IMG/VR virus record: IMGVR_UViG_3300037507_000754
Coordinates: 1,367-65,366 of that record
Direction: 5' to 3' (one strand)
DNA length: 64,000 bases
Origin: a virus
Lineage: Duplodnaviria; Caudoviricetes
In this document: piece by piece, positions 25,951-48,325 of the stretch
Layout: each line of letters starts with the position of its first letter
Position numbering within the stretch: the first letter of the stretch is position 1
Position numbers and translations under genes: made by a program
Notes under the pieces: generated by a model
The model's input: the letters and a program-made list of their open reading frames with translations, nothing else
Databases searched by the model: none
Told to the model about the DNA's origin: nothing

Positions 25951-28900
25951 ATGGCTGACAGGTACTGGGTTGGTGGTACAGCAGCTTGGGATGGCACTGC
26001 CGGAACCAAGTGGTCAACTACGTCTGGCGGCGGTGGCGGGGCAAGCGTTCCTACCAGCGCTGATGATGTGTTCTTCACGAATCTGTCCTCCGGCACCTGC
26101 ACCATCTCCAGCGGCAACACTGGTGCCAAGTCCATCAACTGCACAGGGTTTACGGGGACGTTGGCAGGTAATGCCGTCATTATCGTCTCTGGTAGCGTCA
26201 CGCTTGATGCGGGCATGACGTTTACTTACAACGGTACGATGACGCTGAATGGTACAGGAACCTTGACCAGCGCAGGCAAGACGTTTGGTCCTGTTAATAT
26301 CAGTGGTAGCGGTATCACGGTGACATTGGGGGGTGCGCTGAATATTGGCGGTAATACACTTACTGTGACTCAAGGAACCCTTGATACTGCAAACTATAAT
26401 CTCACAGCATCTGTTATTTCTTCAGCCAACAGCAATGTCCGAACTATTACTCTGGGTTCGTCTACACTTACTTTAAGTGGCTCTACTCCTATAGGATTTT
26501 CAACAAACACAAATCTTACTTTTAACGCGGGAACTTCTACAATTAATGCAACAGCGGCGGGTCCGACTATTGCTGGCGGCGCTGCTTCTGCTACAGGGGT
26601 TACGTTTTATAATGTAGCATTTGCGGCGGGTGGCTCTGGAATTGATATTAGAGGTATCAATACATTTAATGATTTTACAGTAGCCGCACAGGCGTCCGCA
26701 GGCGTCCGTCAAGTCACCTTCGACTCCCGCCAAACCATCAACGGCACCCTCTCCACCAGCGGCACCGCAGGTAACCGCAGAGTCTGGTTCAGAGGCGTCA
26801 CCTACGGCATCGCCCAAACCCTCACCATCAACGCCACACCGAGCCTGACCGACGCAGACTTCCGAGACATCTACGTCATCGGCACAGCCGCGCCCATCAG
26901 CGGCACGCGTGTTGGCGACTTGAGAGGCTGCAGAGGCATCACCTTCGACACGCCGAAGACGGTGTATTGGAACTTGGCTGCTGGCGGCAACTGGTCTGCC
27001 AACGCTTGGGCTGCAAGCTCTGGTGCTGGTGTCAGCACAGACAACTTCCCATTGGCGCAGGATACCGCTGTCATTGAGAACACGGGGTTGAATACGTCGG
27101 CTACGGTGACGATAGATTCCGCGTTTTCATACACTGGTGCGCTGTCAACGCAGACAAGAACAAATGCTTTTACATTGGGTGGCAGTAACTCAATGACATT
27201 TTATGGGGATTTGACGCTATCCTCCGCCGTCACATTAAGCTATAACGGCACAATAACATTCTCAGGCCGCAACATCCAAACCGTTACCAGCGCTGGGAAA
27301 GCTTTTAACAGCAATTTGGTAATTGACTCGTATGGAGGCAGGGTTGAGCTTGGAGATGCGTTTAGTGTTTCTGGTAACAACCTCACCATCACCAACGGCA
27401 CCTTCGACACCAAGAACTACAACGTCACCGCAGGCTCTCTGGCGTCCAGCAACAGCAACGTCAGGGCGATAACATTGGGGTCGAGTACGGTGACGTTGAG
27501 TGGAACAGGAGTTGCTTTTAATACATCTGTCATAGTAAACTTGACATTTAATGCGGGGACATCGCAATTAAATATGTCTTCGACGGCTTCCAATATAACC
27601 TTAGATGCCGGTGGACTGACACTTTATAATGTGTCTTTTACAGGAGCTTCCTCAAGTTTGCTTACCCACAGCGTAATAGGTACAAATACATTTAATAATT
27701 TAACATTAACTGCCTCCACTTCTGCTGGTTTAACACAATTAGCTTTGGTTGGAAACCAAACCATCACCGGCACCCTCACCGTCGCCGGTGCCACAGCCGT
27801 CCGTCGCATCTTCGTCCGCTCCAACACCCTCGGCACCACCCGCACCCTCACAGTCGGCACGCTCAGTGCCGACGATTGCGACTTCCGCGACATCACCATT
27901 GCAGGCACCGCAGCAGGCTCTTCTCCGACCCGTGCAGGCGACTGTGGCGGCAACAGCGGCATCACCTTCCCTGCGGCGAAGACGGTGTATTGGAACCTTG
28001 CAGGGGCGCAGAACTGGTCTGCAACGGCTTGGGCACCGGGCTCTGGAGGCAGTCCAGACATCAACAACTTCCCGTTGGCGCAGGACACGGCTGTGTTTGA
28101 CAACACTGGCTCTGCTGGGACGGTGACGGTTCAGACGTTCAACGTAGGCACACTTGATACGTCGACCCGCACGACGGCTATGACGCTAAGCGTGGGGCTA
28201 GGGCAAAACCCAACTTTTTACGGGTCTTTGACTTCTGGAACTGGCCTCACTTTTGGTGGCGCTCGAACAGTGTTTTTATCTGGGAGAACCACGCAGACCA
28301 TTACCAGCAACGGCGTTTCTTTTGGCGGCTGGGGCTTTACAATAGATTGTGACGTTGGGACTGTTCAATTAGGGGACGCTCTTGATTTATCGGCAGCTAC
28401 GACCCTGACGCTCACATCTGGCACATTTGATGCTGTGACGTACAACGTCACGACAGGTCTTTTTTCTCAGAACACAAATATAGGTACTATATTAAAAATG
28501 GGGTCTGGTACATGGACGTTATCAGGCACTGGTTCAGTTTGGAATTATCAAACTACTGCTCCCCCAACAGCTTTCTACAAAGGTACTGCAGACATCGTTC
28601 TGTCCGACACCAGCACCACCGCCCGCACCTTCGCAGGCGGCGGTCTCTCCTACAACAAACTCACCATCGGCGGCACCACCGGCACGTCCACTCTCACCAT
28701 CACCGGCAACAACCAATTCACCGAACTCGCCTCCACCAAAACCGTAGCCCACACCATTGCCCTTGGCACCACAACGCAGACCTTCGGCAAATGGACGGTG
28801 ACGGGTACAGTAGGCAACGTCGTCACCCTCACCGGCACAGGCACTGCCCACATCCTCGCTGGAGCTTGCACAGACAGCATTGACTACCTTGCTATGGGCA

Positions 28901-31900
28901 GCATTGGCTTTGCTGCCACAAGCCCTGGTGAGTTCTACGCTGGTGCCAACAGCACAGGCACGGCGGCAGCGCCTGTTTACCGCACAGCCAAGCCTGCTGA
29001 CAGCACGCGCTATTGGGTTGGTGGCACAGGCAACTGGAGCGACACCGCTCGTTGGTCTACGTCGTCTGGCGGCGCTTCTGGCGCTGCTGTGCCACGCAGC
29101 CATGATGATGTTGTCTTCGACAGCCTGTCCAACGCCACAGCCTACACAGCCACGGTGAACGCTGTCACTGGCGGCATTCGCTGCAAAGCCCTCACCATTG
29201 CAGGCCCGTTGGTGGGCAACGTGACGCTGGCAGGCAGCACAGCTATTGTTGGCATTCACGGCAACGTGACGCTGCCTGCGACGGGGTTGACGCGGACGTA
29301 CACAGGCGCTATCACGCTGTCAGGGTCTACGTCGGGGTTGACGTTGACGACTAATGGCGTTGCGTTGGCATCGTCCATTACGCTGGATGGGGTTGGGTGT
29401 GAATGGGTGTTGGGTAGTGCTTTAGATTTGAGCACAGTAGGGGGCTTTACGTTAGTTAATGGAGTTTTTGATTGTGTAACGTACAATTTGACATGTGGGG
29501 GAATTACCTGCAGTTCTTCTAATATAAGAACCTTTGACTTTGGGTCCGGGACTATAACGACTTCTGGTAGTAGTGGCGCATTTGCGTTTGGAACTACGGA
29601 AACTACATCTGCTGATCTTACGATTGTTGCCGGAACTGCGCAAATTAACTGCACTGGAAGCAACCCAACCTTTTCAGGAAATGGCAAAACCTTCTATAAC
29701 GTTGCATTTACTAACACATCCGCAGGCACCGTCACCCTCAACGGAGCCAACACCTTCAACGACCTGTCCTTCACCGGCATCACCTCTACTGGCTTGAAGA
29801 TCATCAGCGTCACAGCCAACCAGACCATCACAGGCACCTTCACCTGCTCAGCAGGCACCAACGCCACGAGGCGTCACATCGTTCGCTCTAACATCATCGG
29901 CACCACACGCACATTGACCTGCGCGGCTGTCAGCCTCACTGACGTTGACTTCAGAGACATCACCATAGCCGGTGTAGCAGCGCCAGCAACGGGGACACGC
30001 ATTGGCGATTGCAAGGGCAACAGCGGCATCACGTTCACGGCTGCGGCGAACAAGTATTGGAACCTTGCTGCTGGCGGCAACTGGGGCGGCTCTATCGGCT
30101 GGGCTACGTCAAGCGGCGGCACACCAAACATCAACGACTTCCCGTTGGCACAGGACACCTGCTTTTTTGAAGCTACAGGGCTGAACAGCGGAGCCACCAT
30201 CACCGTCAACCAAGACTACAACATCGGCACCATCGACATGTCGGCTAGGACGACGAATACGATGACGTTGGGGGCGGCGGCGGGGGCCACAATCTACGGC
30301 AACTGGATCAATGGTACAGGCACGACGTTGACGGGAACTGGCACATTGATTTTTGTGGGCCGTGGTAGTCAAACAATAACTAGCGCCGGAAAGATATTTA
30401 CACAAGGTTTTACCATTGACAATCCTACAGGTTCTGTGACGCTACAAGATGCCTTTCAAACAAATTTTAATTCAGCAACTGCACTAATAATAAGTGCTGG
30501 AACGTTTAATGCAGTTACATACAATGTGACGCTATCTGGAGCTACTTCGTCGTTGCGTTCGTTTACTTCAAGCACAAGAACCGTTGGCATAGGTTCAGGA
30601 ACATGGACTATTGCGGGTTCAGGAAATGCGGTGGACGCGAGTACCTCCACCAACCTCACCGTCACCGGAACCGGCACCATCAGCCTCACCTCCGCATCAG
30701 CCAAAACCTTCGCAGGCGGCAGCGCCTCCTACAGCGGCATCACCCTCAACCAAGGCGGCGCAGGCACTCTCACCATCAGCGGCAACAACACCTTCGCCAA
30801 CATCACCAACACCTACAAGGCCACTGGTGCCACCACCATCGCCTTCGGCACCACAACGCAGCGTGTAGGCAATTTCACCGCTGCTGGTGAAGCCGGAAGA
30901 GTGTTGACGCTGACGGGTACGTCTGCCGCCTCCCCTGCGACGCTGGTGCTAACCTCGGGCACGGTGACCACGCCTGACTACCTGACGATCACCGGCATCC
31001 GCGCCTACGATCTGAACACCACGTGGTACGCCGGGGCCAACTCGACCAACAACGGCTCGCTGGGCTGGCTGTTCGAGGCCGCAGGCGGCACGACGTTCAA
31101 CGTCTCCTTCTCCGACACCGCCACGGGCGACGATGCGCTAAGTGCGGCGTGCATTTTCCTTTCTGCAACTTCTGAGAGCGCTACCGGCTCTGATACGGCA
31201 ACTGTTGCTGGCTCAACGTTCAACACACTACTGAGCGAAACAGCTACCGGTCAGGACACAACGTCTGCCACGGCGACCTTCAACGCCTCGTTGACCGACA
31301 CCACCACTGGTTCAGACACCATTTCCGCAGGCCTTGTGTTCGCCGTATCGCTTTCCGACACCGCTACGGGTGCGGATGCCATTTCCGCAGGGCTTGTGTT
31401 CGCTGTATCACTCTCCGACACGGCCACAGGTGCGGATACCTTCAGCGCAGTTGCAACGCTCGGCGCCGCCTTCTCTGACACCGCCACGGGTGCGGATGCT
31501 TCGTCGGTAGTCGCGTCTGTTTTCGGCGCCCAAACCGCTGAAACTGCTGGTATACAAGATACGCTTACCGTTACGGCGAGTCTTAGCGTTGCTCTTTCTG
31601 ACGCGGCATCTCTTGTAGATTCTCCCACTACCCTGGTGGACTTCACGTCATCATTTGCCGACACCGCCGTAGCGTCCGATGGGATTGCCGCTGGGTATGC
31701 AGTTCTAACGGTTGTTTCTGAATCGGCTACAGGTGCTGATGCTTTCGTTGTCGCTGCGTCGGTCTTTACCCCCAGCTTCACGGATACAGTAACAGGCACT
31801 GACGCAGTTGTAGTTCTCGCGTCGTCGTTTAGCGCCGAGGTTTCGGACATCGTTGTAGGTACGGACGCGCCAGATGCAGCGGGTTCGGTCTTCGGTTCGA

Positions 31901-32751
31901 GCCTGTCTGACACGGCAACCCTTTTCGATCTGCCCTCGGTAGCGGCCTCGGCCTTCGGCGCGGCGCTCAGTGATACGGTCACGGGTGCGGATGCTCCTGC
32001 GGCGGTGGTGATCTTCCCGGTGTCTTTTTCGGACACCGCCACGGGCGCGGATGCCCTCGCCGCGCAGATGTCCTTCGCCACGTCCCTCAGCGAGACGGCA
32101 ACGCTCAGCGACACCGCCGCCGTAGCAGCGTCGATCTTCAATCCAGCAGTGCAGGAGCTTGCCCTGGCACTGGATATCCCGGCTGTTGCGGCGTCGACCT
32201 TCGGTGCGGTCTTGAACGAGACGGTGCAGGCGCAGGATGTACCTGCGGCACTGATGGTGTTCCCGGTGTCTTTCTCCGACACGGCTACAGCCGCCGATGC
32301 GCTGGCCGCGCAGATGGTGTTTGCCACGGCTGTGGCCGAGCTTGCAACGGGCTCCGACGCTACCTCCGTGCTCGTCATCTTCGTCTCTTCGGTCAGTGAG
32401 ACGGCCTCGGGGCTTGACGCCCCTGCTGTCGCAGCGTCGACCTTCAACGCGAGCTTCAGCGCCTCGGCGATTGGGCAGGGCACTCCTGCCGTGGCCGGTT
32501 CGACCTTCAATGTCTCGCTCAGCGAGACCGGCGCGATCACCGACGTCGTCGTTGGGGGCTACCTCTGGAATCCGATAGATGACACCCAGAGCGCAAACTG
32601 GCAGAATGTGGTAGATGCGCAGTCTGCGGGCTGGACGAGCGTGAACGACGCGCAGTCTGCGGGTTGGGTACAAGTCACCGACGCGCAGTCCCCGGGATGG
32701 GTGCAGATCAACGACGCGCAGGGCCCGAACTGGGTCGAGATCCAAACTTGA
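25951..32751 (+). CDS. giant modular tail fibre / adhesin-like beta-solenoid protein (2266 aa)
   Basis: Five ~340-aa modules starting YWVGG or YWNLA, then ~20-aa SDTATGxD repeats and 11-aa DAQSxxW repeats. Confidence 0.75.
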   Translation: MADRYWVGGTAAWDGTAGTKWSTTSGGGGGASVPTSADDVFFTNLSSGTCTISSGNTGAKSINCTGFTGTLAGNAVIIVSGSVTLDAGMTFTYNGTMTLNGTGTLTSAGKTFGPVNISGSGITVTLGGALNIGGNTLTVTQGTLDTANYNLTASVISSANSNVRTITLGSSTLTLSGSTPIGFSTNTNLTFNAGTSTINATAAGPTIAGGAASATGVTFYNVAFAAGGSGIDIRGINTFNDFTVAAQASAGVRQVTFDSRQTINGTLSTSGTAGNRRVWFRGVTYGIAQTLTINATPSLTDADFRDIYVIGTAAPISGTRVGDLRGCRGITFDTPKTVYWNLAAGGNWSANAWAASSGAGVSTDNFPLAQDTAVIENTGLNTSATVTIDSAFSYTGALSTQTRTNAFTLGGSNSMTFYGDLTLSSAVTLSYNGTITFSGRNIQTVTSAGKAFNSNLVIDSYGGRVELGDAFSVSGNNLTITNGTFDTKNYNVTAGSLASSNSNVRAITLGSSTVTLSGTGVAFNTSVIVNLTFNAGTSQLNMSSTASNITLDAGGLTLYNVSFTGASSSLLTHSVIGTNTFNNLTLTASTSAGLTQLALVGNQTITGTLTVAGATAVRRIFVRSNTLGTTRTLTVGTLSADDCDFRDITIAGTAAGSSPTRAGDCGGNSGITFPAAKTVYWNLAGAQNWSATAWAPGSGGSPDINNFPLAQDTAVFDNTGSAGTVTVQTFNVGTLDTSTRTTAMTLSVGLGQNPTFYGSLTSGTGLTFGGARTVFLSGRTTQTITSNGVSFGGWGFTIDCDVGTVQLGDALDLSAATTLTLTSGTFDAVTYNVTTGLFSQNTNIGTILKMGSGTWTLSGTGSVWNYQTTAPPTAFYKGTADIVLSDTSTTARTFAGGGLSYNKLTIGGTTGTSTLTITGNNQFTELASTKTVAHTIALGTTTQTFGKWTVTGTVGNVVTLTGTGTAHILAGACTDSIDYLAMGSIGFAATSPGEFYAGANSTGTAAAPVYRTAKPADSTRYWVGGTGNWSDTARWSTSSGGASGAAVPRSHDDVVFDSLSNATAYTATVNAVTGGIRCKALTIAGPLVGNVTLAGSTAIVGIHGNVTLPATGLTRTYTGAITLSGSTSGLTLTTNGVALASSITLDGVGCEWVLGSALDLSTVGGFTLVNGVFDCVTYNLTCGGITCSSSNIRTFDFGSGTITTSGSSGAFAFGTTETTSADLTIVAGTAQINCTGSNPTFSGNGKTFYNVAFTNTSAGTVTLNGANTFNDLSFTGITSTGLKIISVTANQTITGTFTCSAGTNATRRHIVRSNIIGTTRTLTCAAVSLTDVDFRDITIAGVAAPATGTRIGDCKGNSGITFTAAANKYWNLAAGGNWGGSIGWATSSGGTPNINDFPLAQDTCFFEATGLNSGATITVNQDYNIGTIDMSARTTNTMTLGAAAGATIYGNWINGTGTTLTGTGTLIFVGRGSQTITSAGKIFTQGFTIDNPTGSVTLQDAFQTNFNSATALIISAGTFNAVTYNVTLSGATSSLRSFTSSTRTVGIGSGTWTIAGSGNAVDASTSTNLTVTGTGTISLTSASAKTFAGGSASYSGITLNQGGAGTLTISGNNTFANITNTYKATGATTIAFGTTTQRVGNFTAAGEAGRVLTLTGTSAASPATLVLTSGTVTTPDYLTITGIRAYDLNTTWYAGANSTNNGSLGWLFEAAGGTTFNVSFSDTATGDDALSAACIFLSATSESATGSDTATVAGSTFNTLLSETATGQDTTSATATFNASLTDTTTGSDTISAGLVFAVSLSDTATGADAISAGLVFAVSLSDTATGADTFSAVATLGAAFSDTATGADASSVVASVFGAQTAETAGIQDTLTVTASLSVALSDAASLVDSPTTLVDFTSSFADTAVASDGIAAGYAVLTVVSESATGADAFVVAASVFTPSFTDTVTGTDAVVVLASSFSAEVSDIVVGTDAPDAAGSVFGSSLSDTATLFDLPSVAASAFGAALSDTVTGADAPAAVVIFPVSFSDTATGADALAAQMSFATSLSETATLSDTAAVAASIFNPAVQELALALDIPAVAASTFGAVLNETVQAQDVPAALMVFPVSFSDTATAADALAAQMVFATAVAELATGSDATSVLVIFVSSVSETASGLDAPAVAASTFNASFSASAIGQGTPAVAGSTFNVSLSETGAITDVVVGGYLWNPIDDTQSANWQNVVDAQSAGWTSVNDAQSAGWVQVTDAQSPGWVQINDAQGPNWVEIQT

Positions 32752-32758
32752 GGTCATC

Positions 32759-34051
32759 ATGACGACGTTCACCACGAATCTGCGACTGACCCAGCCTGCC
32801 TTGAGTTCTACAGGTTGGGGTACGACGGTCAACAACGGGATCACGGCGCTGGTGGATGTGGCGGTTTCCGGTGTTGAGACTGTCGACGTTACGGCAGGCA
32901 ATGTGTCGATGACCATTGACGACGGCGCACAAAGCGTAAACGATGCCCGCAACATGTTTATTGTTGTAGGGGGTACGCTCCCCGCAAACCGCACGGTCAC
33001 GGTCCCTACCAACAGCAAGCTGTATTTTGTTCATAACAACACCTCTGGCGCTTACACGCTTTCTTTTCAGGCCACCGCAGGTGTGCTCGTCCCGCAGGGA
33101 AAGAAGGTGCCGTTATACAGCGACGGTACAGACATCCTTTACGCCTTTGACCACCTTGGGTCGCTGACCCTTGGAACCGCTCTTGCCGCGACCTCTGGGG
33201 GCACTGGGCAGAGCAGCTACGCTGTGGGCGATCTGCTGTACGCGGGCACAACCACGACGCTTGCCAAGCTCGCCAGTGTTGCCACGGGCAACGTGCTGCG
33301 TGCCGGGGGTGTGGGTACCGCGCCTGCTTGGGGCAAGGTCGACTTGACGACGGACGTGACTGGGGTGTTGCCGGCGGCGAACGGGGGGACGGGGCTGTCG
33401 GTGTTCCCTGCGCCTGGGACGCTGGGAAATGTGCTGTATTCGGACGGGACGGATTGGACGGCGGCAGACCTGTCGACGCTTGTCCCTGACGCCTCAGATA
33501 CCGCTAAGGGTGTCGTCGAACTCGCCACCACGGCAGAGGTGCAAACGGGCACCGACACGACGCGAGCGATTACGCCTGCTGGGCTGCGGGGCGGGGCTTT
33601 GGTGCGGATGACGGCGCAGCCTACGACATCTGGAACGTCGATCACTTTTACCGGTATTCCCTCGTGGGTAAAGCGCATTACGGTGATGTTGTCTGCGGTA
33701 AGTACTAGCGGATCTAATAACTTGCTTGTTCGTATTGGGGATTCTGGCGGGATTGAAACTACCAGCTACGCCTCTTGTGCGCAGCTTGGTGCTGGGGCGG
33801 CTACAGATACGACAGGTTTCATCATAACTAGGACAATCCTTAGCACTTCTACTACTTCTGGTATGGTAGTATTGACAAATATAGACGGTAATACTTGGAC
33901 AATGTCTGCAAACATATTTGAAACTGCCGGATCTACTACTTCTTCTGCGGGCGTCAAAACACTATCTGACGTATTGACACAACTAAGTTTTACTAATGTG
34001 AATAGTGCAGATACTTTCGACGCTGGCTCCGTTAATGTCATGTACGAGTAA
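32759..34051 (+). CDS. tail fibre protein
   Basis: WGTTVNN anchor-like N-terminus, GGTG fibre repeats, ASDTAKGVVELAT repeat, lower-GC C-terminal domain. Confidence 0.75.
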   Translation: MTTFTTNLRLTQPALSSTGWGTTVNNGITALVDVAVSGVETVDVTAGNVSMTIDDGAQSVNDARNMFIVVGGTLPANRTVTVPTNSKLYFVHNNTSGAYTLSFQATAGVLVPQGKKVPLYSDGTDILYAFDHLGSLTLGTALAATSGGTGQSSYAVGDLLYAGTTTTLAKLASVATGNVLRAGGVGTAPAWGKVDLTTDVTGVLPAANGGTGLSVFPAPGTLGNVLYSDGTDWTAADLSTLVPDASDTAKGVVELATTAEVQTGTDTTRAITPAGLRGGALVRMTAQPTTSGTSITFTGIPSWVKRITVMLSAVSTSGSNNLLVRIGDSGGIETTSYASCAQLGAGAATDTTGFIITRTILSTSTTSGMVVLTNIDGNTWTMSANIFETAGSTTSSAGVKTLSDVLTQLSFTNVNSADTFDAGSVNVMYE

Positions 34052-35735: not shown

Positions 35736-37688
35736 ATGCCGCTGAAAGCGCTACGCCTCAAGTCCGGTATCTTCCGGGAGAACACGCGCTACTCCGCAGA
35801 AGGCGGATGGTACGAGTGCGACAAGGTGCGCTTCCGCTCGGGGCAACCTGAGAAGATCGGCGGCTGGCAGCAGGTCAGCAACGACCAGTTCCTCGGCTAT
35901 GCACGGGCGCTCTGGCCTTGGGATGTCTACCTCGGTCTGGGCACCGAGGTTAAGTACTACATCTACTACGGCGCGTACTACGACATCACGCCAATTGACA
36001 CCTATGCGCTGACCAACCCGTTCAGTGCGGTTGACGGCTCTGCCGTCATTACCGTGGCGCACACCAGTCACGGTCGGCTTGAAGGGGACTACGTTCAGTT
36101 CGACAACGTCACAGGCCTTGGCGGCAACATGACGCAGGCTGTGCTTGAGCTGGAGTACCAAGTAGCCACGGTCATCAACGCCAACAGCTACACGTTCAAC
36201 GCTCGGGACCCGAGCACGGGCGCCCCCGTGCTGGCGAATGCTACAGACCAATCACCGGGCTCTCCCGGCGGCGGCTCCGTCACGGCGCAGTATCAGCCCA
36301 ACATCGGCACGCCGATTCAGTACCCACCTCCGGGTATTCTTACGGGCTGGGGCGGCGGCACTTGGGGCAGCGGCGTCTGGGGTGGCAGCTTGACGCCTTT
36401 CGTACCTACGCAGATCAACCTGTGGAACCACTACAACTTCGGCGAGGATTTGATCTACGGACCGAAGGGCGGCGGGGTGTACTACTGGGACGCTTCGGCG
36501 GGGTTTACCGCACGAGGCGTCAACATCTCCACGCTTGTCGGTGCTAGTGACACGCCTTCTGCGGCCTTGTTCCGCGCCGTCTCCGACGCTTCTCGCTTCG
36601 TGTTGGTCTTCGGCACGACGGACTACGGCTCCTCGGCGCTCAACCCGATGCTGATCCGCTGGTCGGATCAGGAGACAGCAGCCAACTGGACCCCGGCGGC
36701 GACGAATCAGGCCGGAAGCCTGCAACTGTCCCGGGGCTCCGAGATTCGCGCCGTGGCGCAGACTCGGCAGGAGTTCCTCGTCTGGACAGACATCGCGCTG
36801 TACTCACTCCAGTACCTCGGCCCGCCCATCGTGTGGGGTTCGCAGATCCTCGCGGACAACATCACCATCGTCAGCGACCGTGCATGGGCAGTGGCGGCGG
36901 GCGTCACCTTCTGGATGGGGGATGAGAAGTTCTACATGTTCGACGGGCGCGTGCAAACGCTCAACTGCGACATCCGCAAGTTCATCTTCGACGACTTCAA
37001 CGCGAACCAGAACCTTCAGGTCTTCGCCTCTACCGTGGAGCAGTTCAGCGAGGTGTGGTGGTTCTACTGCTCTGCGAACTCCACAATGATCGACCGCTAC
37101 GCGGTCTTCAACTACGCTGAGCGCATCTGGTACTACGGCTCCTTGGGGCGCACCGCGTGGCTCGACGCCAGCGTCCTCTCCAACCTGCCCATCGCTGCGG
37201 ACTACAACCGCCGCCTGCTCAACCACGAGACAGGGTGCGATGACGCGTCTACACCAGAGGCTGCGCCCATCGAGGCCTACATCACCTCGTCCCAATTCGA
37301 CATTGACGACGGGCACAACTTCGGGTTCGTGCGCCGGATGCTGCCCGACGTGACGTTCACGGGTTCGACGGCGACGGTTGAAAATCAGTCCATCACGATG
37401 GCGCTGCTGCCGCTCCAGAACTCGGGCTCGGGCTACACGCGGGGCGTGGAAAATGTTGGCCCTGCGGCCAACATGTCGGTGGCGCTGACCAACGAGGCAA
37501 CCGTGCAGCGTGATGCGGACAACGGCATCGAGCGCTTCTCGGGAACAGTCACGCCGTACGACGGCAACCTGTACATCCGCGTGCGCGGCAGGCAGATGTC
37601 GCTCCGCGTTGCGTCGACCGGGCTGGGGGTGCAGTGGCAACTGGGTACGCCGCGCATGGACGTGCGGCCTAGCGGGCGCAAGTCATGA
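35736..37688 (+). CDS. putative tail nozzle / tubular protein B (P22 gp10-like)
   Basis: 650-aa beta-propeller-like; IRWSDQE...AGSLQL...LGTPRMDVRPSGRK. Confidence 0.65.
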   Translation: MPLKALRLKSGIFRENTRYSAEGGWYECDKVRFRSGQPEKIGGWQQVSNDQFLGYARALWPWDVYLGLGTEVKYYIYYGAYYDITPIDTYALTNPFSAVDGSAVITVAHTSHGRLEGDYVQFDNVTGLGGNMTQAVLELEYQVATVINANSYTFNARDPSTGAPVLANATDQSPGSPGGGSVTAQYQPNIGTPIQYPPPGILTGWGGGTWGSGVWGGSLTPFVPTQINLWNHYNFGEDLIYGPKGGGVYYWDASAGFTARGVNISTLVGASDTPSAALFRAVSDASRFVLVFGTTDYGSSALNPMLIRWSDQETAANWTPAATNQAGSLQLSRGSEIRAVAQTRQEFLVWTDIALYSLQYLGPPIVWGSQILADNITIVSDRAWAVAAGVTFWMGDEKFYMFDGRVQTLNCDIRKFIFDDFNANQNLQVFASTVEQFSEVWWFYCSANSTMIDRYAVFNYAERIWYYGSLGRTAWLDASVLSNLPIAADYNRRLLNHETGCDDASTPEAAPIEAYITSSQFDIDDGHNFGFVRRMLPDVTFTGSTATVENQSITMALLPLQNSGSGYTRGVENVGPAANMSVALTNEATVQRDADNGIERFSGTVTPYDGNLYIRVRGRQMSLRVASTGLGVQWQLGTPRMDVRPSGRKS

Positions 37689-38503: not shown

Positions 38504-39574
38504 ATGGGTATTTTGGACTCCATCTTTGACTTTGCCGGTTCATCCAAGGGACTGGTAAGCATCCTCGCGGCGCTTGCGAGTGCCAAAGACCGAGAGCGCG
38601 CTCGTCCCGCTACGGGCGGGGGTGTGAGCTACGCCATGCCCGGACCACGCCGCCTGCAAGCGGTCAAGAACCTGGGGCGCTACACCGACGTCATGGGGCT
38701 CGCCAACGGCGGCACGGCAGACGAGGAAGAGGCGGTCAAGGCGTTGCTCTACGGCATGGCGCAGGGGCCCTACGGCCCGCTGCTGGCCTACGACATCCCG
38801 GAGCCGAACCTTGCGCCGGTCGCACCCAAGCCGGAGCCCGAGAAGCCGCGTGTCACGCAGCCGACGAAGGCGACGATTGACGACTACGGGTATGAGTACA
38901 CGCCGCCTACCGGACGTGCCGGTACATACAACCAGGAAATCAACGACGTCCTGACCGACATGGTGGCAAGGGGTAGTTATGGTCCAACAGGACTCGCTGG
39001 CCGAGGCCTCGGGCACGCCGCTGAAATTGCGTATGGTCGCCTGATGAATGCGCTGGGCAGAGAGAAAACCCCCGCTGAATTAGCGGCTATGCCGCTTGAT
39101 GCGATAGCAGTACCGCGTTCTGCTGACGACATTGCCAGGGAAGCGTTCTATGCCGAGTACGGAATTACCCCGTCTGCACCTACAGAAGGCGGTCCAGAAA
39201 GCGGAGTATCACCGGCAACAGGTGCGGGGTTTGACGGACTATCTGCACCTGTTGACGGTCCTGCGGGGGTGTACGGGTTTGCCCAAGGTGGCCCCGTCCA
39301 CATGGAAGACGGCGGCTTCGTTCTCACCGAACGAGCCGTCAAGGGAGCTGGCGGGCCGCGTGGTCTGGCGGCAGCGCTGCCTCAAGCACGCATGATTCGT
39401 GGTCCGGGGACTGGCACAAGTGACAGCATCCCAGCGACAATCAGTGGGCCCAGAGGACAGACTCCGGCCCGAGTGTCGAACGGCGAAGCCTACGTCCCCC
39501 GACGTGCAGTGCAGCAGGCTGGCGGTCCCAAACGCATGTACGGGCTGATGAGTGCCCTTGAGAGGAAAGCGTGA
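38504..39574 (+). CDS. putative internal virion / ejection protein
   Basis: GPGTGTSDSIPA...ARVSNGE motif; LANGG, FAQGG, MEDGG. Confidence 0.55.
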   Translation: MGILDSIFDFAGSSKGLVSILAALASAKDRERARPATGGGVSYAMPGPRRLQAVKNLGRYTDVMGLANGGTADEEEAVKALLYGMAQGPYGPLLAYDIPEPNLAPVAPKPEPEKPRVTQPTKATIDDYGYEYTPPTGRAGTYNQEINDVLTDMVARGSYGPTGLAGRGLGHAAEIAYGRLMNALGREKTPAELAAMPLDAIAVPRSADDIAREAFYAEYGITPSAPTEGGPESGVSPATGAGFDGLSAPVDGPAGVYGFAQGGPVHMEDGGFVLTERAVKGAGGPRGLAAALPQARMIRGPGTGTSDSIPATISGPRGQTPARVSNGEAYVPRRAVQQAGGPKRMYGLMSALERKA

Positions 39575-40446: not shown

Positions 40447-42026
40447 CCATGATGAACGCTGGACTTGGGGCTATCGCCCCCCGTAACCCCAATCCGATGG
40501 CGTCTCAACCGCAGCCGTTCCAACAACTGCTTGCGCTGAATGAGGCTGTCAAGACAGCAAATCTCGAACGCGCTGCTCAGGGTCAGCAGGCGATGTCGCA
40601 GGCGCAGCAGATGTCGCCTACCATCTATGACCAGTTGAAGATGGCACTTCAGCAGATACAGGCGCAACAGCCGGTGCCAGGGATGGCCAGTGGTGGGATG
40701 GTGGCGTTCAGAGACGGCGGTCTGGCGGAAGATGACCTTGAAGGTCTTGATGAAGACCTTGTGGCGGAAGGAGCCACCAGCCAAGAAGCACAAGACAGGC
40801 AGAGTATTCTGTCTGCGCTTAGCTCAATGGGCATGACGGCAGAAAAACTGGCTGCTGCTGGATACGACGTATTCACGATGCCAGTTCGAGCACTAGCTGG
40901 TGTATATAACACTCTTGCACGGGGGCCTAGGGCTTTTGGTGTTCCTTTACCTTTCATCCCAGAGGCGTTTGGCCAGAATAGTCTGACACCGGCTATGGAC
41001 AAAATCACGGCTCGGGAAAACCAAGCCGGAGTAGTTCAGGCGTACCAAGATCCCCGTCGTCCTGACACGTTTGCTGCGCCCGCTGGCCTTGCCGCTGCCG
41101 CTGCGGCTACGCCGCCCGCTGGCCCTACTCCGCCTGCTCGCCCCCCTGCCCCCCGTGCTGGTACCGGTGCCGGTGCCGGTGCTGGTGGTGCTGGTGATGC
41201 TGCCGCACCGCAGAGGGGCGGACTGGCAGAGTACCTTCGGATGACCGAGCAGTTGGCAAAGGACGTTGAGGGCACCGCAGCGGTAGACCCCCGAGTCCTT
41301 GAAGCACGACAAGCCTATGACGCGATGCTGAAAGCGTCGATGGACCCTGCGGAACAGCAGATGCGGGAACTTGAAGCGCAACAAGAGCAGAACATCTTCG
41401 AGAACCCCGAACTCATGGCTGCAATTCTTGAGGGCATGAGGGGTACAGATCGACTTGGTGACACGCTGATGGGCGCTGCCACTGGTTTGGTCAAAGCCCG
41501 TGCAGGTCAGCAGAAGGGGCGTAGGGAAGCGCAAGCCAACCTCGTCAAACTCCGTCAAGAACTCGCCAGAGCAGAAGCTGAAGCACGTCTGGCACGTGCG
41601 GAGAAGGACACCGAGGGTGAACAACGGGCGAAGCTCAAGGCGGCGGAAATTCGCGCTGCTATGAACGAGAAATCTTACGAGTTGGAGACCCGTCGGATCA
41701 GTGCGGATGCTTCTGCTACTGCTGCCTCACGACCCACCAGTGGTTCCTCGGAGGAATCTGTTGAACTCAAACGTATGCAAATCATGCGTCAAGACCCGAA
41801 GTACTCCGGTTTGGCTAAAGAATACGAAGAAGCGGTGAAACTTCTGGCTATTGCGCCAAGCAACCCTAGAGCCCAACAGCGTGTTCGAGACGCTGAGGCG
41901 GCACTCAATGCGCTTGCACAGGCGTATGGTGTAGCTAGAATGAGTCCAACCTCCGGTCAAGCCAGTGCGGCCCCGGGCGCTACCACCCAAGGGTGGGGTA
42001 CAGCTACTGTAGTCGAAAAGCCATGA
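40443..42026 (+). CDS. putative ejection protein
   Basis: Helical and Ala/Gln-rich; MASGG and FRDGG. Confidence 0.55.
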   Translation: MTMMNAGLGAIAPRNPNPMASQPQPFQQLLALNEAVKTANLERAAQGQQAMSQAQQMSPTIYDQLKMALQQIQAQQPVPGMASGGMVAFRDGGLAEDDLEGLDEDLVAEGATSQEAQDRQSILSALSSMGMTAEKLAAAGYDVFTMPVRALAGVYNTLARGPRAFGVPLPFIPEAFGQNSLTPAMDKITARENQAGVVQAYQDPRRPDTFAAPAGLAAAAAATPPAGPTPPARPPAPRAGTGAGAGAGGAGDAAAPQRGGLAEYLRMTEQLAKDVEGTAAVDPRVLEARQAYDAMLKASMDPAEQQMRELEAQQEQNIFENPELMAAILEGMRGTDRLGDTLMGAATGLVKARAGQQKGRREAQANLVKLRQELARAEAEARLARAEKDTEGEQRAKLKAAEIRAAMNEKSYELETRRISADASATAASRPTSGSSEESVELKRMQIMRQDPKYSGLAKEYEEAVKLLAIAPSNPRAQQRVRDAEAALNALAQAYGVARMSPTSGQASAAPGATTQGWGTATVVEKP

Positions 42027-45000
42027 CAACCTATCGCATCTCGGCCCCCAACGGTAAGACGTATGAGATCGAGGGGCCACCGGGTGCGACACAGGAACAA
42101 GTCATTCAGGCGGTGCTGGCGCAATCGCCTGAAGCAGGGCAGGTCCCTGAGACGAGTTTTTTCGGCCAAGTAGGCGAAGCCTTCAAGGGTGTCATCCCCG
42201 GTGCGGTCGGGCTCGTAGAGCAAGCCGCCATCGGTGCCTCAGCCCTCCTGCCGGAGGAGTACGAGAAGCCCACGCGGGAGACTATCGCCCAGGTGGCTGG
42301 CGCTGCCAAGGCACCCTTCGCCCCGGCTCCGGGGTATGGGGACACGGTCGGGCGCAAGTTCGGTGAGGCCTTTGGGTCCTTCTTGCCTATGTTGCCCCTT
42401 GGGGCGTTGGGTCTGGCGGGCCGTACTGCTGCCGTAGGCCTTGGCGTTGGGGCCGGTGCAGGCGAGGCGCGGACGCGAGCCGAGACCGAGGGTGCCACTG
42501 AAGAGCAGCGTTCCACAGCGACCGCGCTGGGCACCTTGCCGGGGGCCTTGGAGGTCTTCGCGCCGTTCCGCATTCTCAAGCGCGTGCCGGAAGGTGAGGT
42601 TCTGACGGCGGTCGACCGCATCAAGCGGATCGCCATCGCAAGCGGCGAGGAAGCCGCTCAGGAGGCCGCGTCAGGCCTTGCCCAGAACATGATTGCCCGG
42701 GGCGTCTACAAGCCCGAGCAGGAACTCATCGAGGGCCTTGGTGAGCAGGCGGCTTACGGCGGTGCCGTGGGTGGTCTGGCACAGGGTCTCTTTGACCTCG
42801 CTTTGGGTCGTCGAGCCCGGGGTACTGGTGAGCCGGTGCCGCCCGAAGGCCAGACCGAGATCGACGTGGTCAAGGCCAAGCGAGAGGCCGAGCGTCAGGC
42901 GGCGGAGGCCGCCCGTCAGATGCCACCCTTGCCTGAAACTTACGCGGAGCTTGTCCGCTACAGCGAGGAGGTGAAGCGCCTGCCGAAATCCAAGGAGCGC
43001 AACGAGGCGCTCAAAGCGGCGAGTGAGAAGCGCAAGGCCATCGTCGTCGCTGAGGTCAATGCCAACCGACTGTCGACTGAGCGTGCCAAGCAGTTCTTGA
43101 CCGCTGAAGAGGTCGAGCAGGCTGAGATCGTGCGGCGCGAAGAGTTCGTCCCGCCTGCGGTTGAGACCCCTGCGGCTGCTCCTGCGGCTGCACCACCCGT
43201 CGAAGAGCCCAAGGTCCGTAAGGTGGGTGCCCCTGCGCCGCTGCCTGACGTGCTTGACAGCGCGACGATCAAGACCATCGGATTCACCAAGGGCAAGATC
43301 CACGACGCACTGGTTGGTAAGTCTGTCACGGACCCTGAGATCCGCACGGTGCTGGAGGGATACAAGAACCGCTCCAACGCAAGCGCCAAAACAGCCGCCA
43401 AGATCGACGCCTTCTTGGCGCGGTTGCCTGAGCCTGCGGTACCTACGGCACCCGCCGTTGAACCCGCTGCGCCGCCCGTGGCGGCTGAACCGGCACCTGC
43501 GGTGCCCACCCCGGCACCTGCGGTGCCCACCCCGGCACCTGCGGTGCCCGAACCGGAGACTCCAAGTGCTGTCGAACCTGTCGAACAACCAAGTGGAGCA
43601 GGCGCTCCAGTGGCTGGCGGACCCGCTGCCGTCACCCCCACCGAAGGGGCTGGAGCCCCTGAGCCAAGCGGAGTGGTTCCTCCTGTCGAGGATGCTGGAC
43701 AGCCTGCTGGCGGAGAAGCAGGCGAGCCCCCTTCAGTAGCCCCCAGTGCCATCGCTGAGACGATGGCCCCTGCCCCGGCTACCTACGTCGCCCCTGTATC
43801 CCAAGGTGCTGCTGCACGGGCCAAACGTGGTGTGCGTCGTGAGACCCCCGCCCTCAATACCGAGGATGACATCGACCGTGCCTTGGCAACGGGCCTGATT
43901 GACGAAGAGACTGCCGACCGCGCACGGGCTGAACTGACCGAACCTGAAGCCCCCGCCACTGCTATGGGACAGGCGTTCCAGAAGCAGATTGACGAGATCA
44001 GGGCGAAAATGGACGCGTTGCGTCTGAAGGGTGAGAGGATTCCTGCGCCGAAGTCCAAGGCTCGTAAGGAGTTCGATGCACTGCAAGAGCAACTGAACGC
44101 ACTCCTACCCAAGGAAACTGGCTCCCTTGAGGAGAAGCTGGAGAAGGCGGGGGCTACTGGTGTGTTTGTAGCGGGCGGTGCTGGCCCCGTTCTTGACATC
44201 CCGTCAGTTCGTGCTGCACTCAAGGACCGTAGCCCCAAGATGCTTCGGGCAGTCCTCACCTACATCGGCGTGGACACAGACGGCACATACCTACCGACGA
44301 CATACTCCGCCGGTGAAGCTGCGGAACTCGTCGGGTTGAAAAAGAGTTCTGGTTCGGAGGTACGTCGGGTTGCTGAAACGTTGGGCATCACAAGCGATGT
44401 GATCAGCCGGTTCCAAGCGTCACAGACGGGACGCGTTGGCATTGCCAAAGACGTCTCTGAAGCAAGCCTCTCCGGTATCTCTGTCGAGAACCCCAAGGCA
44501 GGGGTGCTATACGAGGCCCCAAAGAAGCCCGCCAAGACTGAGGAAGAGTACGACGCGCTTGTTGCTAAGGAAGAAGAGACAAGAAAAGACTCTAAATCTG
44601 GAAAGTACGAAGAAGGTACTAAAGAGTTTGGTAAAGCACGCAAGGCGCACGCAGATGCTGAAAAAGCGCTTAAAGCAGCACAACCAAAAGCACAGGATTT
44701 TTTACGCCCTGCACTGACTAAGTTGGGGCAGATTGACTTCACCAAACTCAACACTCGTCAACTTGCTGAGATCTACGCCCGTGCTTCTTTCTACCCTGCC
44801 AAAGACAACGTCGAGGTAATGAAAGCGCTCGGCGCTGAGATTGAAACTCGGCGCAAAGCCGACAGGAAAGGCACCGACGCTGCTGTCAACCGTGCTTACG
44901 GCAAAGTCGTAGAGGAACAAGAGGCGAAGGCAGAAGAGGGAGTTGAGACCACTGAGGAGGTTGACGAGGACACTGAGACGGAAGGCAGGACCCGGCGTTT

Positions 45001-48000: not shown

Positions 48001-48325
48001 GATCTACAACCTCGACAGGTCTGTCGAGCAGGTCTACAACTCGTACAGGCGCAAGCTGGAGAACAACCCTGACGACGCAGAGAAGTTCCTCAAGGACAAC
48101 TTCGGCTTGTACGTGGTGCGTAGTGAGGTGCGTAGCACGATGGAGGCAATCCGCGCTTTGAACGCTCAGGCCCGGGCCATCGACAAGATGACGGACCTGT
48201 CACCTGAAGAACGGCGCGTGATCATCAACGACCTACGTGCTCAACAGAACGATCTGGCTCGGGATGTGTACCGACTGCGTCGTCAGGTGACCGAGGAGCA
48301 GCGGACGATGGACGCGTCGAGATAA
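42023..48325 (+). CDS. large polyvalent / ejection protein (2100 aa) with a zincin HExxH region and an LPD38-like C-terminus
   Basis: IFHEVFHKG...VEEALAE; INFSRRG...IPFFNA...YQNLPDYVRDRNWVIP...ENLANYSFFLGRP. Confidence 0.7.
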   Translation: MTTYRISAPNGKTYEIEGPPGATQEQVIQAVLAQSPEAGQVPETSFFGQVGEAFKGVIPGAVGLVEQAAIGASALLPEEYEKPTRETIAQVAGAAKAPFAPAPGYGDTVGRKFGEAFGSFLPMLPLGALGLAGRTAAVGLGVGAGAGEARTRAETEGATEEQRSTATALGTLPGALEVFAPFRILKRVPEGEVLTAVDRIKRIAIASGEEAAQEAASGLAQNMIARGVYKPEQELIEGLGEQAAYGGAVGGLAQGLFDLALGRRARGTGEPVPPEGQTEIDVVKAKREAERQAAEAARQMPPLPETYAELVRYSEEVKRLPKSKERNEALKAASEKRKAIVVAEVNANRLSTERAKQFLTAEEVEQAEIVRREEFVPPAVETPAAAPAAAPPVEEPKVRKVGAPAPLPDVLDSATIKTIGFTKGKIHDALVGKSVTDPEIRTVLEGYKNRSNASAKTAAKIDAFLARLPEPAVPTAPAVEPAAPPVAAEPAPAVPTPAPAVPTPAPAVPEPETPSAVEPVEQPSGAGAPVAGGPAAVTPTEGAGAPEPSGVVPPVEDAGQPAGGEAGEPPSVAPSAIAETMAPAPATYVAPVSQGAAARAKRGVRRETPALNTEDDIDRALATGLIDEETADRARAELTEPEAPATAMGQAFQKQIDEIRAKMDALRLKGERIPAPKSKARKEFDALQEQLNALLPKETGSLEEKLEKAGATGVFVAGGAGPVLDIPSVRAALKDRSPKMLRAVLTYIGVDTDGTYLPTTYSAGEAAELVGLKKSSGSEVRRVAETLGITSDVISRFQASQTGRVGIAKDVSEASLSGISVENPKAGVLYEAPKKPAKTEEEYDALVAKEEETRKDSKSGKYEEGTKEFGKARKAHADAEKALKAAQPKAQDFLRPALTKLGQIDFTKLNTRQLAEIYARASFYPAKDNVEVMKALGAEIETRRKADRKGTDAAVNRAYGKVVEEQEAKAEEGVETTEEVDEDTETEGRTRRLSDEDAGDDAVYRTIPQTPLVQGAISDAQLRKIVADIERALGGEADITILDDITDLDNKQAPGSRAGALQGGKIYLFRSGIADGVEGQKTIFHEVFHKGLANLLPPAEYRALMTKFYNQSTAVRQAADAYLASETGKKDTEGMSPEEGRVLAVEEALAEMAEATKLTGSTLRQLGNFFARVADRIGMPGLARAIRTMGLDPLQAFIRDAIQAGIKPSTATGQTRYRSLVGEKEERTLGDKLDAKFGGNKAIGFRAQAMDLLAGVDYIFTKAYGNRIRDNRGDYNPVFLMSRALDAPRFASEVKEYGTMRRDPTGLLSVETLNYNGEDISYKQVLKDIAAEAKTRGIAPETFKNQVGESLASHREYELMNSPQAAGLDFFLTPQEAATAEQAFQSDAFIKGVSEKLDQIRFAMIDAMVEAGRITPAKAQVWKDAIGYVPFSRIDDFDNLALPQGGGSNAKLAAFKEIAKYKGSQDRQTQNPVENFSKLMDWMVNESMKADALGSALPEMELLGYAQFVPNPDAVDNNKKGALTPPVYVRGQKKVFYVPDPANLAAFIGAPTTDVPAFIRGAQKFSQFLRIGVTATPPFAIKQVFDDITRAYGHSGVKNPTAMLPRILLNFPRNWWNEIKGTQSAGVRDLAKSGVVPAYDTIIGGNVKNILEETGLAPRSVGKAILRIMEAGAKASDVAVREAIYNQTLKETGDRALAELRAREIINFSRRGVSKTADYLIRTIPFFNAYARSMDKLLLAAAGNPSAQRSIGATTGYARNLFYKRMGVLTAMGFGYALMMSDDEEYQNLPDYVRDRNWVIPGGKELGFVPAVPLPAELSFFFKAIPERVVQYFKLQGTPEERDAMRVLKELMLNGVDIFSAPNITPQVLKPILENLANYSFFLGRPLESQAQLALDPSERYGTGTSEAMKAASRTLTDIATSTGVEALKVSPIMLENLVRGMFGMSAGIALSVADVMVNPTRTDRPLHQTIAAQLTGASAVMKDPVGMRYLDEIYNLDRSVEQVYNSYRRKLENNPDDAEKFLKDNFGLYVVRSEVRSTMEAIRALNAQARAIDKMTDLSPEERRVIINDLRAQQNDLARDVYRLRRQVTEEQRTMDASR
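43490..43549 (+). repeat. 21-bp tandem repeat, about 3 copies (PAPAVPT)
   Basis: ccggcacctgcggtgcccacc repeated. Confidence 0.9.

Follow-up and report, generated by a model that had tools for sequence, protein, structure and literature searches.

An oriented synonymous-codon pattern around hypervariable cassettes in a giant fibre-like gene of a lake phage

A fibre-like gene and its codon composition

The window analysed here is a stretch of 64,000 nucleotides that spans nearly the whole of a 65,366-bp lake phage genome (IMG/VR record IMGVR_UViG_3300037507_000754, positions 1,367 to 65,366; 100% complete according to CheckV), and its subject is a single open reading frame (ORF) at 25951-32751 on the plus strand, in which AT-rich cores lie between arms whose third codon positions are rich in G on one side and in C on the other. 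The phage encodes a terminase, a portal protein, a major head protein, DNA polymerase A, an SNF2 helicase, a PD-(D/E)XK nuclease, a DUF927 protein and a virion-RNA-polymerase-like protein of 2110 amino acids (aa). The ORF, hereafter Q as the reference gene of this phage (its relatives carry L-numbers), is situated in the virion module, immediately upstream of a 430-aa protein with tail-fibre PHROG matches. The first-pass annotation of the window had placed the whole patterned region inside one ORF, and this is indeed the case.

The 2266-aa product has no match in Pfam, PHROG, NCBIfam or the PDB sequences. An AlphaFold2 model of residues 1004-1710, for which 53 relatives served as input, has a predicted local distance difference test score (pLDDT) of 89 and a predicted template modelling score (pTM) of 0.84, and is all-beta with short strands throughout, including both cores that lie within it. 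A fold search of the PDB returned beta-helix proteins as nearest (PL6 lyases, autotransporter passengers, tailspikes), none of them significant (best E 0.032, TM score at most 0.19). The product is predicted to be a giant beta-solenoid fibre or adhesin of a lake phage, and its cores are putative host-receptor binding surfaces, as the position and size of the gene and the variability described below suggest.

The gene contains direct DNA repeats with spacings of 1023 and about 2067 nucleotides (nt), and its cores match one another at paralogous positions with 37-49% amino acid identity. They are of two types: type a comprises core 2, the first halves of cores 4 and 6 and the segment 26158-26352, and type b comprises cores 1, 3 and 5 plus the second halves of cores 4 and 6. 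Each unit consists of conserved rungs, the arms, alternating with one or two hypervariable blocks of 85-130 codons. The internal repeats and the paralogous core types imply that the compositional period is that of the protein repeat. The features of the patterned region are the following, with GC3 for the GC content at third codon positions and skew for (G3-C3)/(G3+C3) at the same positions.

25951-32751, plus strand: fibre-like ORF, 2266 aa; about five paralogous units of about 340 aa plus a C-terminal repeat region
26340-26685, plus strand: core 1, type b; AT-rich, hypervariable; GC3 0.18-0.32; amino acid identity 0.43-0.60
27115-27375, plus strand: core 2, type a; moderately AT-rich, variable; GC3 0.41-0.56; amino acid identity 0.41-0.55
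27500-27755, plus strand: core 3, type b; AT-rich, hypervariable; GC3 0.21-0.38
28200-28590, plus strand: core 4, types a and b contiguous; AT-rich, variable; GC3 0.26-0.47; amino acid identity 0.33-0.64
29420-29715, plus strand: core 5, type b; AT-rich, hypervariable; GC3 0.29-0.38
30345-30630, plus strand: core 6, types a and b; AT-rich, hypervariable; GC3 0.18-0.38; amino acid identity 0.43-0.49
29215-29419, plus strand: G arm before core 5, the clearest; skew in G arms +0.12 to +0.81; third positions G-rich (ACG, TTG, GTG, GGG)
26150-26339, 27020-27114, 27430-27499, 28090-28199 and 30235-30344, plus strand: other G arms, third positions G-rich
29716-29980, plus strand: C arm after core 5; skew in C arms -0.63 to -1.00; third positions C-rich and G-poor (ACC, CTC, GTC, GGC)
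26686-26900, 27756-27930, 28591-28900 and 30631-30840, plus strand: other C arms, third positions C-rich

The base counts made by hand in the earlier annotation proved exact (35% GC at 27661-27760; 41 G and 16 C at 29321-29420; 51 C and 19 G at 27761-27860). In windows of 34 codons GC3 runs from 0.18 to 0.94 and the skew from +0.81 to -1.00, while GC1 and GC2 are nearly flat. The pattern persists against 300 shuffles in which the amino acid sequence and the codon usage of the gene were kept, a comparison that the annotation itself had proposed: the standard deviation of windowed GC3 is 0.189 vs 0.083 in the shuffles (2.3-fold, z = 17.9), and that of windowed G3-C3 is 0.278 vs 0.133 (2.1-fold, z = 15.7), values that none of the 300 shuffles reaches in either case. 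Twelve other ORFs of the phage are much flatter, with z at most 9.2 for GC3 and 4.7 for skew; the least flat are the next fibre gene at 32759-34051 (6.5 and 4.7), 38504-39574 (GC3 z 6.7), the gene of the 2110-aa protein (GC3 z 9.2) and 6751-7827 (skew z 4.5).

That the difference is largely synonymous is borne out by the 81% of the arm-vs-core GC difference that lies at third positions. From amino acid content alone, a GC3 of 0.60-0.61 and a G3-C3 of -0.15 to -0.20 are predicted for cores, C arms and G arms alike; the observed values are 0.32 and -0.03 in cores, 0.78 and -0.64 in C arms, and 0.67 and +0.19 in G arms. At fourfold degenerate sites the frequencies of C and G are.35 and.33 in the other genes,.69 and.07 in C arms, and.17 and.49 in G arms, and A+T amounts to.66 in cores; as these regions were picked by their composition, the fourfold frequencies are descriptive only. 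The same holds for the arm and core coordinates in all tallies below, which were taken from composition, with one independent exception, a definition of blocks by protein variability alone.

The orientation proposed in the annotation, G-skewed DNA before each core and C-skewed DNA after it, stands for its second half and is uneven in its first. A strong C skew follows all six cores, and the C arms are the protein segments with the highest conservation; the G skew ahead of the cores is strong at cores 2, 3 and 5, moderate at 4 and 6, and weak at core 1. To either side of a core, it is the strand with its 3' end toward the core that is rich in G and T.

Relatives, core variability and exchange

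At least 580 stretches related to the gene are present in IMG/VR, and the best 80 loci were used for an alignment of Q with 81 homologous ORFs (82 sequences), onto which the codons were mapped. The pattern, for which a repetition on homologous fibres had been suggested, recurs in 80 of the 81 relatives. Core GC3 is lower than C-arm GC3 in 81 of the 82 sequences, the skew is lower in C arms than in G arms in all 82, and the G-arm skew is positive in 70. The one exception to the core-arm contrast is also the only named relative, Limnohabitans phage DC31 (PQ492658.1; tblastn 50% amino acid identity), a plaque-forming phage according to the portion of its published description considered here (PMC12195039). 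Its homologue is flat, with a GC3 of 0.17-0.19, no skew and no contrast between core and arm. This homologue (L001, 6001-10119) is open for 1374 aa and unannotated; the linear record begins inside the gene, and two small ORFs on the opposite strand are annotated in its place.

When blocks are defined from protein variability alone, the skew before the block exceeds that after it in 49 of 50, 54 of 55, 53 of 55 and 55 of 55 representatives for the four main blocks, and in 8 of 43, 39 of 55 and 42 of 55 for three smaller ones. Averaged over the family, the C arm is robust (-0.25 to -0.39 over about 70 codons, followed by an abrupt end) and the G arm is weak (+0.03 to +0.06, vs a gene mean near -0.12); the skewed zones extend about 30-70 codons to the left of a core and about 70 codons to its right. 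The fibre family is far wider than the phage backbone, with its at least 580 IMG/VR stretches against 23 for the 2110-aa virion protein (41993-48325), and it resides in genomes with a GC3 of flanking genes (flank GC3) from 0.22 to 0.80. The fibre gene evidently travels between unrelated phages.

The cores are far more variable than the arms, as had been supposed: mean amino acid identity to the 81 relatives is 0.33-0.6 in cores vs 0.8-0.93 in arms. This is not a matter of rate within a common history. I binned 3236 pairs of sequences by the difference of their arms at fourfold sites, and in the 92 pairs with an arm difference of 0.20-0.30 the mean core difference is 0.565, with saturation at about 0.67; between Q and L081 the arms differ by 0.235 and the cores by 0.738. 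Nearly saturated cores beside young arms mean that the two share no common genealogy. Core identities are bimodal (for core 3, 23 pairs lie above 0.97, 22 at 0.7-0.97 and 3276 below 0.7), whereas arm identities form a continuum. Nearly every lineage has its own core alleles, with 53-64 clusters at 90% identity among 65-82 sequences (53 clusters at 90% nucleotide identity among 65 sequences for core 1), so that each core position is occupied in the phage population by a very large set of old, deeply diverged alleles.

Against this background of unlike alleles, some cores are shared in a reassorted manner. Cores 2, 3 and 5 of Q are matched by different relatives, with flanking arms at 0.77-0.95: core 2 has 92% nucleotide identity to L006 only and about 50% to most others, core 3 is matched by L074 at 100% and L024 at 99% with the remainder at about 0.5, and core 5 is found at 100% in L006, L007 and L061, where the flanking arms are at 0.86-0.95. 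Cores 1, 4 and 6 have no close match among the relatives (maximum 0.72). Codon-by-codon tracks show that identity stops at core edges, and Q and L007 are identical only across 29395-29700. A set of 70 non-duplicate sequences yielded 45 tracts that are identical over 50 codons or more, and many of these consist of one core with short flanks (27505-27819, 27508-27825, 29284-29685, and 30268-30663, the last containing core 6 and common to L007 and L068). Left tract ends fall in G arms in 12 of 36 cases (5.7 expected, p = 0.01), and right tract ends in C arms in 13 of 33 (7.9 expected, p = 0.06). No recent exchange between different core positions was found, the best match being 76% over 111 nt.

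Lake metagenomes agree with this picture. There are 24 lake-water runs, each a separate study and perhaps all from one campaign, that hold at least 0.73 of the sampled words of the gene, and the assembled contigs of four lake runs, chosen outside the 14 of the 24 that were flagged as possible sources, were placed on it. The phage's own contigs match the cores letter for letter and terminate within arms. Those of co-occurring relatives align to the arms on either side and skip the core (27489 to 27757, 27501 to 27754, 28454 to 28711, 26545 to 26709, and at core 4 also 28452 to 28651). Summed contig depth is greater in arms than in cores in all four runs; as these are contigs and not reads, the depths do not rank the parts of the gene. 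The contig joins fit several strains per lake with common arms and different cores.

The first-pass annotation had proposed that the pattern targets cassette exchange or local hypermutation. Cassette exchange with breakpoints at core edges, in the skewed arms, is suggested by the shared cores, the tract ends and the contigs that run from arm to arm; whole cores appear to move between phage genomes by ordinary homologous recombination, with crossovers within about the first 0-200 nt of the arms. Local hypermutation is not supported: core identities are bimodal, the clean core contigs argue against it within the population, and near-identical sequences differ mainly in arms. Five such pairs exist (L008/L010, L009/L010, L022/L082, L030/L031, L066/L067), all of which differ in arms; in four of the five the cores are identical, and in L066/L067 they differ at 0.2% of residues. 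Hypermutation directed at the cores should produce the reverse, although the arm differences could in part stem from mixed-strain consensus.

The number of units is itself variable among the relatives at 26700-30300 (L024, L040, L047, L060 and L063), some of which are without the core-1 unit. Metagenome contigs also link paralogous arms with a jump of about 2.2 kb (27991 to 30215, 28034 to 30296), which suggests unequal recombination between similar C-rich arms as the source of the varying unit number.

Signals, origin of the composition and rival readings

No machinery specific to such exchange came to light in the complete 65,366-bp genome. As the annotation had stated for reverse transcriptase and invertase, profile searches gave no matches for RVT_1 (PF00078), for which control genomes did match, nor for Resolvase (PF00239) and Phage_integrase (PF00589). 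Searches of the six cores against the genome with blastn and tblastn in quest of silent donor copies returned only the cores themselves and their paralogous positions at 37-49% amino acid identity. Inverted repeats bracketing the cores were absent from 25951-31100, where there are 10 weak inverted pairs, and no tRNA genes were found in the phage. The PD-(D/E)XK nuclease (55938-56621, minus strand; weak Cas4-like match) adjoins the DNA polymerase and is a possible recombination exonuclease.

One inverted repeat had been singled out as a fold-back, and it is exact in the sequence:

27420-27498, no strand assigned: 11-bp inverted repeat (27420-27430/27488-27498), between the C arm of core 2 and the G arm of core 3

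As RNA the stem has a fold z of -2.9. It is complete in 11 of 69 relatives, and the changes elsewhere mostly break pairs without compensation, so that it was rejected as a selected fold-back; I judge it a by-product of N-V-T and T-V-T-L being coded in opposite dialects. The wider idea of a second code overlaid on the protein, by which blocks fold back on each other, is not supported either: the duplex energies of G arms with C arms are no better than those of synonymous shuffles within arms (RNAduplex, 100 shuffles, z +0.18, -0.44, -1.42, -0.70 and +0.51). Avoidance of mRNA structure was likewise discarded, the mean minimum free energy of 102-nt windows being -25.4 in native and shuffled sequences alike, with cores slightly looser and G arms tighter.

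The words GTGACG and GGTGACG occur in Q above shuffles (11 vs 4.2, 0 of 300 shuffles). GGTGACG is present nine times in 26796-30666, eight times pointing toward the nearest core and once, at 28797, away from core 4; in the whole window it occurs 26 times vs 15.5 expected, a number reached by 1 of 100 shuffles. In relatives the two words exceed expectation at 8 of the 9 sites, with counts, however, that roughly equal the number of members in Q's clade. Outside that clade the word is enriched in both directions (inward 205 vs 133, outward 33 vs 22), and it was therefore dismissed as an oriented Chi-like signal; I judge GGTGACG a by-product of V-T dipeptides combined with locally correlated codon choice.

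The base composition of the cores behaves differently from that of the arms when genomes are compared. For 55 loci with enough flanking genes (flank GC3 0.22-0.80), arm GC3 tracks the flank (Spearman 0.64, slope 0.53, both means 0.59). Core GC3 is 0.30-0.55 with a mean of 0.39 and a slope of 0.21 over flank GC3 of 0.27-0.80, and it is below that of the flank in 52 of 55 loci. In distant relatives, the cores show no memory of Q's base at fourfold sites. GC3 depends both on regional conservation (t = 8.4) and on site conservation (t = 8.1), and within the regions that vary most, GC3 is as low at conserved sites (0.31) as at variable ones (0.30). A milder trend of GC3 with conservation is seen in the next fibre gene (r = 0.55), in 35736-37688 (r = 0.46) and in the gene of the 2110-aa protein (r = 0.28 and 0.49), where the link is weak and skew flips are absent.

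These observations could be accommodated if the cores form a pool that circulates among phages with widely differing GC content without adapting to any one genome. Unlike core alleles would be unable to recombine within the core, while arms would be free to recombine, their GC3 drifting toward that of the genome in which they reside; the cores would then miss whatever keeps GC3 high elsewhere, be it codon selection or GC-biased conversion, and drift to an AT-shifted equilibrium at a GC3 of about 0.39. AT-biased mutation, GC-biased gene conversion and weaker selection in linked, fast-adapting regions are the processes underlying this idea.

The G-to-C flip across each core is real and conserved, and amino acids, preferred codons and RNA folding do not account for it. 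Preferred codons were rejected on the evidence of the capsid gene, which prefers CTG (17 CTG to 7 CTC) and G-ending codons for Q/K/E (34 ending in G, 7 in A), unlike the C arms (18 CTC to 3 CTG; 5 in G, 11 in A). For the codon preferences of the host, a scan of genome contigs returned only 3 fragments of metagenome-assembled genomes. Nor is the skew purely inherited. In the three most distant relatives, whose third bases match those of Q at 0.35-0.39 vs 0.30-0.33 expected, hardly above chance, the C arms still have C at.33-.37 vs G at.12-.21, and in C arms C is commoner than G also where the Q column holds A (.23 vs.12) or T (.24 vs.17). Between the two kinds of arm G and C swap places with A+T constant, and the skewed zones coincide with the positions of tract junctions. 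The most likely origin of the flip would thus be a process that acts unequally on the two strands as cassettes are replaced, with opposite strands engaging the two arms. Candidate processes are biased mismatch correction, in which heteroduplex G.G and C.C mismatches would be treated differently; deamination of exposed single-strand 3' tails together with pressure to keep GC3; and selection for G/T-rich invading tails. The biochemistry of mismatch repair, RecA and Chi is what suggests them, and a strand bias tied to recombination is the explanation of the skew that I would guess at first.

The reading that I favour, with moderate confidence, is that of a fibre whose hypervariable cores are swapped by homologous recombination, with the composition of the cores and the oriented skew as probable consequences; no dedicated machinery is needed to explain the exchange. 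Several points weigh against it. The link between skew and recombination is one of positional coincidence, and the enrichment of junctions is modest; the tally uses arms delimited by their composition and tracts that lack mutual independence. The skew stops abruptly about 70 codons past the core, which fits a boundary of protein segments equally well; the arms keep a memory of Q's columns, and part of the skew is therefore inherited; the substitution spectrum within Q's clade has no excess of G-C exchanges, with G-major sites in C arms numbering 5, too few for an asymmetry to be seen. The pool lies at a GC3 of about 0.39 instead of the mean genome value of 0.59, for which I can only infer the reason set out above. 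All relatives but DC31 are short-read metagenome assemblies, and since arms are common to co-occurring strains, some of the apparent reassortment could be assembly chimerism. The contrast of saturated cores with young arms and the composition pattern do not depend on core-arm linkage, and the bimodality and the tracts of exact identity are unaffected by the uncertain alignment within cores.

Among the alternatives, the oriented arms could be functional, such that G/T-rich 3' strands at cassette edges raise cassette replacement via ordinary recombination by presenting single strands that are recombination-proficient or evade mismatch repair. I hold this to be unlikely; if true, it would amount to a built-in, enzyme-free diversification of host range in hundreds of freshwater phages, perhaps general to hypervariable surface genes. 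Another reading is that of a dedicated, undescribed system of diversification whose arms serve as signals (fold-back or GT-rich 3' ends) for breaks, exchange or hypermutation at the cores. The G/T-rich 3' ends face the core on both sides as such a system would require, junctions cluster at core edges, eight of the nine GGTGACG words at 26796-30666 point to the nearest core, and the phage does encode a nuclease with a Cas4-like match; nevertheless the arms have no specific complementarity, the stem no compensating changes, and the word no preferred orientation outside Q's clade, and signs of hypermutation, silent cassettes and recombinases of the tested families are all missing, which makes this system improbable. 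The cores could also be foreign AT-rich inserts from low-GC phages instead of a long-standing shared pool, as the family does have low-GC members (flank GC3 0.22 in DC31 and 0.27 in L058) and a lower GC3 is also seen in those mosaic segments of the 2110-aa gene for which near relatives carry a replacement. This is highly improbable, given that in 81 of 82 sequences the AT shift is found at the same six core positions, that the cores are mutually paralogous, that their GC3 of about 0.39 is far above the DC31-type value of 0.19 and follows no single donor class, and that no core of Q is close to DC31 (50% amino acid identity overall).

There are two further readings. By a code for translation kinetics, the rare AT-ending codons of the cores and the G-ending codons ahead of them would slow the ribosome and the C-ending codons that follow would speed it up, assisting the co-translational folding of each beta-solenoid unit. 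The pattern is periodic with the protein repeat, the C arms are the most conserved segments, the skew ends at a sharp boundary, GC3 rises with conservation at the level of sites, and the cores are rich in ATA (15 of 32 Ile codons) and TTA (15 Leu codons), with 19 ATA among 434 Ile codons and 8 TTA elsewhere in the phage. Yet core GC3 is constant in absolute terms and not relative to the genome, so that in L058, with its flank GC3 of 0.27, the arms (0.49) stand out and the cores (0.33) do not; the plaque-forming DC31 encodes a homologue with neither GC3 contrast nor skew, the C arms deviate from the preferences of the capsid gene for Leu and Q/K/E, and the phage has no tRNA genes. I therefore regard the kinetic reading as unlikely. 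An inherited accident, a chance codon pattern of the ancestral unit that was copied by internal duplication and is still carried, would explain why the skew is strongest in Q's clade and fades with distance (C/G at fourfold sites in C arms.69/.07 in Q vs.38/.14 in 36 distant representatives) and why the arms remember their columns (C at.46 in distant representatives where Q has C,.23 where Q has A). It does not explain why cores without memory are AT-rich in all 81 sequences besides DC31, why the three most distant relatives, with arms almost saturated relative to Q, still have the skew, why C exceeds G even where Q has A or T, or why the neighbouring, unrelated fibre gene has a G skew before its AT-rich variable tip, and is on these grounds unlikely.

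Known systems and neighbouring features

The closest architecture is that of the gp38 adhesins of T2/T6-type phages, in which hypervariable segments lie between conserved glycine-rich motifs (Trojet et al. 2011, PMC3157838); the portion of that article drawn on here describes conserved segments that make up the structural core and keep apart modules in which related phages differ. The likeness, as far as that portion goes, is the alternation of hypervariable with conserved segments in a host-recognition protein, which is putative in the present case. There is no sequence homology (Pfam, PHROG, NCBIfam, PDB), the glycine-rich motifs included; the scale is about ten times larger, with cassettes of 85-130 codons in a 2266-aa beta-solenoid, repeated in paralogous units; and the cassettes have a synonymous composition of their own and an oriented skew at their flanks, while 'GC content' does not appear in the main text of the article. 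Exchange within conserved segments as in gp38 may have a counterpart in the identical cores within divergent arms, the junctions at core edges and the contigs that bridge arms, all of which stem from short-read assemblies with chimerism possible.

In the available part of its description, the vls antigenic-variation locus of Lyme-disease Borrelia undergoes segmental gene conversion with cassettes whose composition is unlike the rest of the genome, and the authors regard the skew as important for conversion (PMC11499132). From that part it is the nearest precedent for odd composition combined with strand skew in a system of cassette conversion. It differs in having silent donor cassettes in the same genome, of which there are none here, where exchange is between genomes, and, going by the same part, in a one-way skew over the whole cassette region, which here flips its sign at each core, the core itself being AT-rich and unskewed.

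Diversity-generating retroelements also direct variability to receptor-binding proteins of phages; here there is neither a reverse transcriptase nor a template repeat elsewhere in the genome, and whole segments with saturated synonymous sites are replaced in lieu of adenine-specific substitution. Shufflons are set apart by the lack, in this phage, of a serine or tyrosine recombinase and of inverted sites bracketing the cores, the exact 11-bp pair lying between cores. Rhs/YD-repeat genes have a conserved GC-rich core and a variable AT-rich C-terminal tip, with displaced tips stored downstream. They resemble the present gene in that a conserved, GC-richer scaffold is joined to AT-richer variable segments, replaced by recombination at the conserved edge, and differ in having one tip per gene and stored copies, as against six internal cassettes, none of them stored, with skew on both flanks. 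Metaviromic islands are under-recruiting host-recognition regions of phage genomes, and here, too, co-occurring lineages differ at host-recognition segments with the rest in common; the variable segments of the fibre are sub-genic (about 300 nt), six per ORF and marked by composition, and were seen in contigs only, which give no measure of recruitment. Among literature titles and abstracts, the coverage of which was incomplete, there was no description of an oriented third-position skew flanking fibre cassettes.

As far as shown, the mechanism is an ordinary one and it is the compositional signature, conserved as it is, that is unusual. Mosaic receptor-binding proteins are well known, but here composition alone marks the units of exchange, at a resolution of about 300 nt and six times per gene. 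If the skew is a footprint of cassette replacement, it could serve as a finder, from sequence only, of exchange units and crossover polarity in uncultured phages, and would also tell which strands invade; if selection maintains it, it would represent a novel type of cis-acting guide for recombination. The fixed core GC3 of about 0.39 in genomes of 0.27-0.80 is, in either case, direct evidence for a cassette pool common to phages that differ widely in base composition.

Two features adjoin the patterned region:

31050-32751, plus strand: C-terminal repeat region of the fibre-like ORF; SDTATGxD-type repeats of about 17-20 aa; absent from many relatives of 1,690-1,740 aa
32759-34051, plus strand: neighbouring tail-fibre gene with PHROG tail-fibre matches; half-pattern

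The C-terminal region contains tandem repeats of 60 nt and 33 nt, the latter (DAQSxGW) at the very end, and the occupancy of the alignment falls beyond about residue 1700. In the neighbouring gene, a G-skewed stretch at about 33300-33800 leads to the variable, AT-rich tip at 33734-34051.

Elsewhere in the phage, the segment 43727-45000 in the ORF of the 2110-aa protein is replaced in near relatives (conservation 0.12-0.22) and kept in distant ones, and its GC3 is lower, at 0.35-0.68; this appears to be a different sort of mosaic patch. An 83-aa ORF at 3049-3300 on the minus strand (TrAA12-like Pfam match, E 7.6e-9) has C at.87 and G at.03 of its fourfold sites and a G3-C3 of -0.77, and is the sole other place in the phage with codon usage like that of the C arms.

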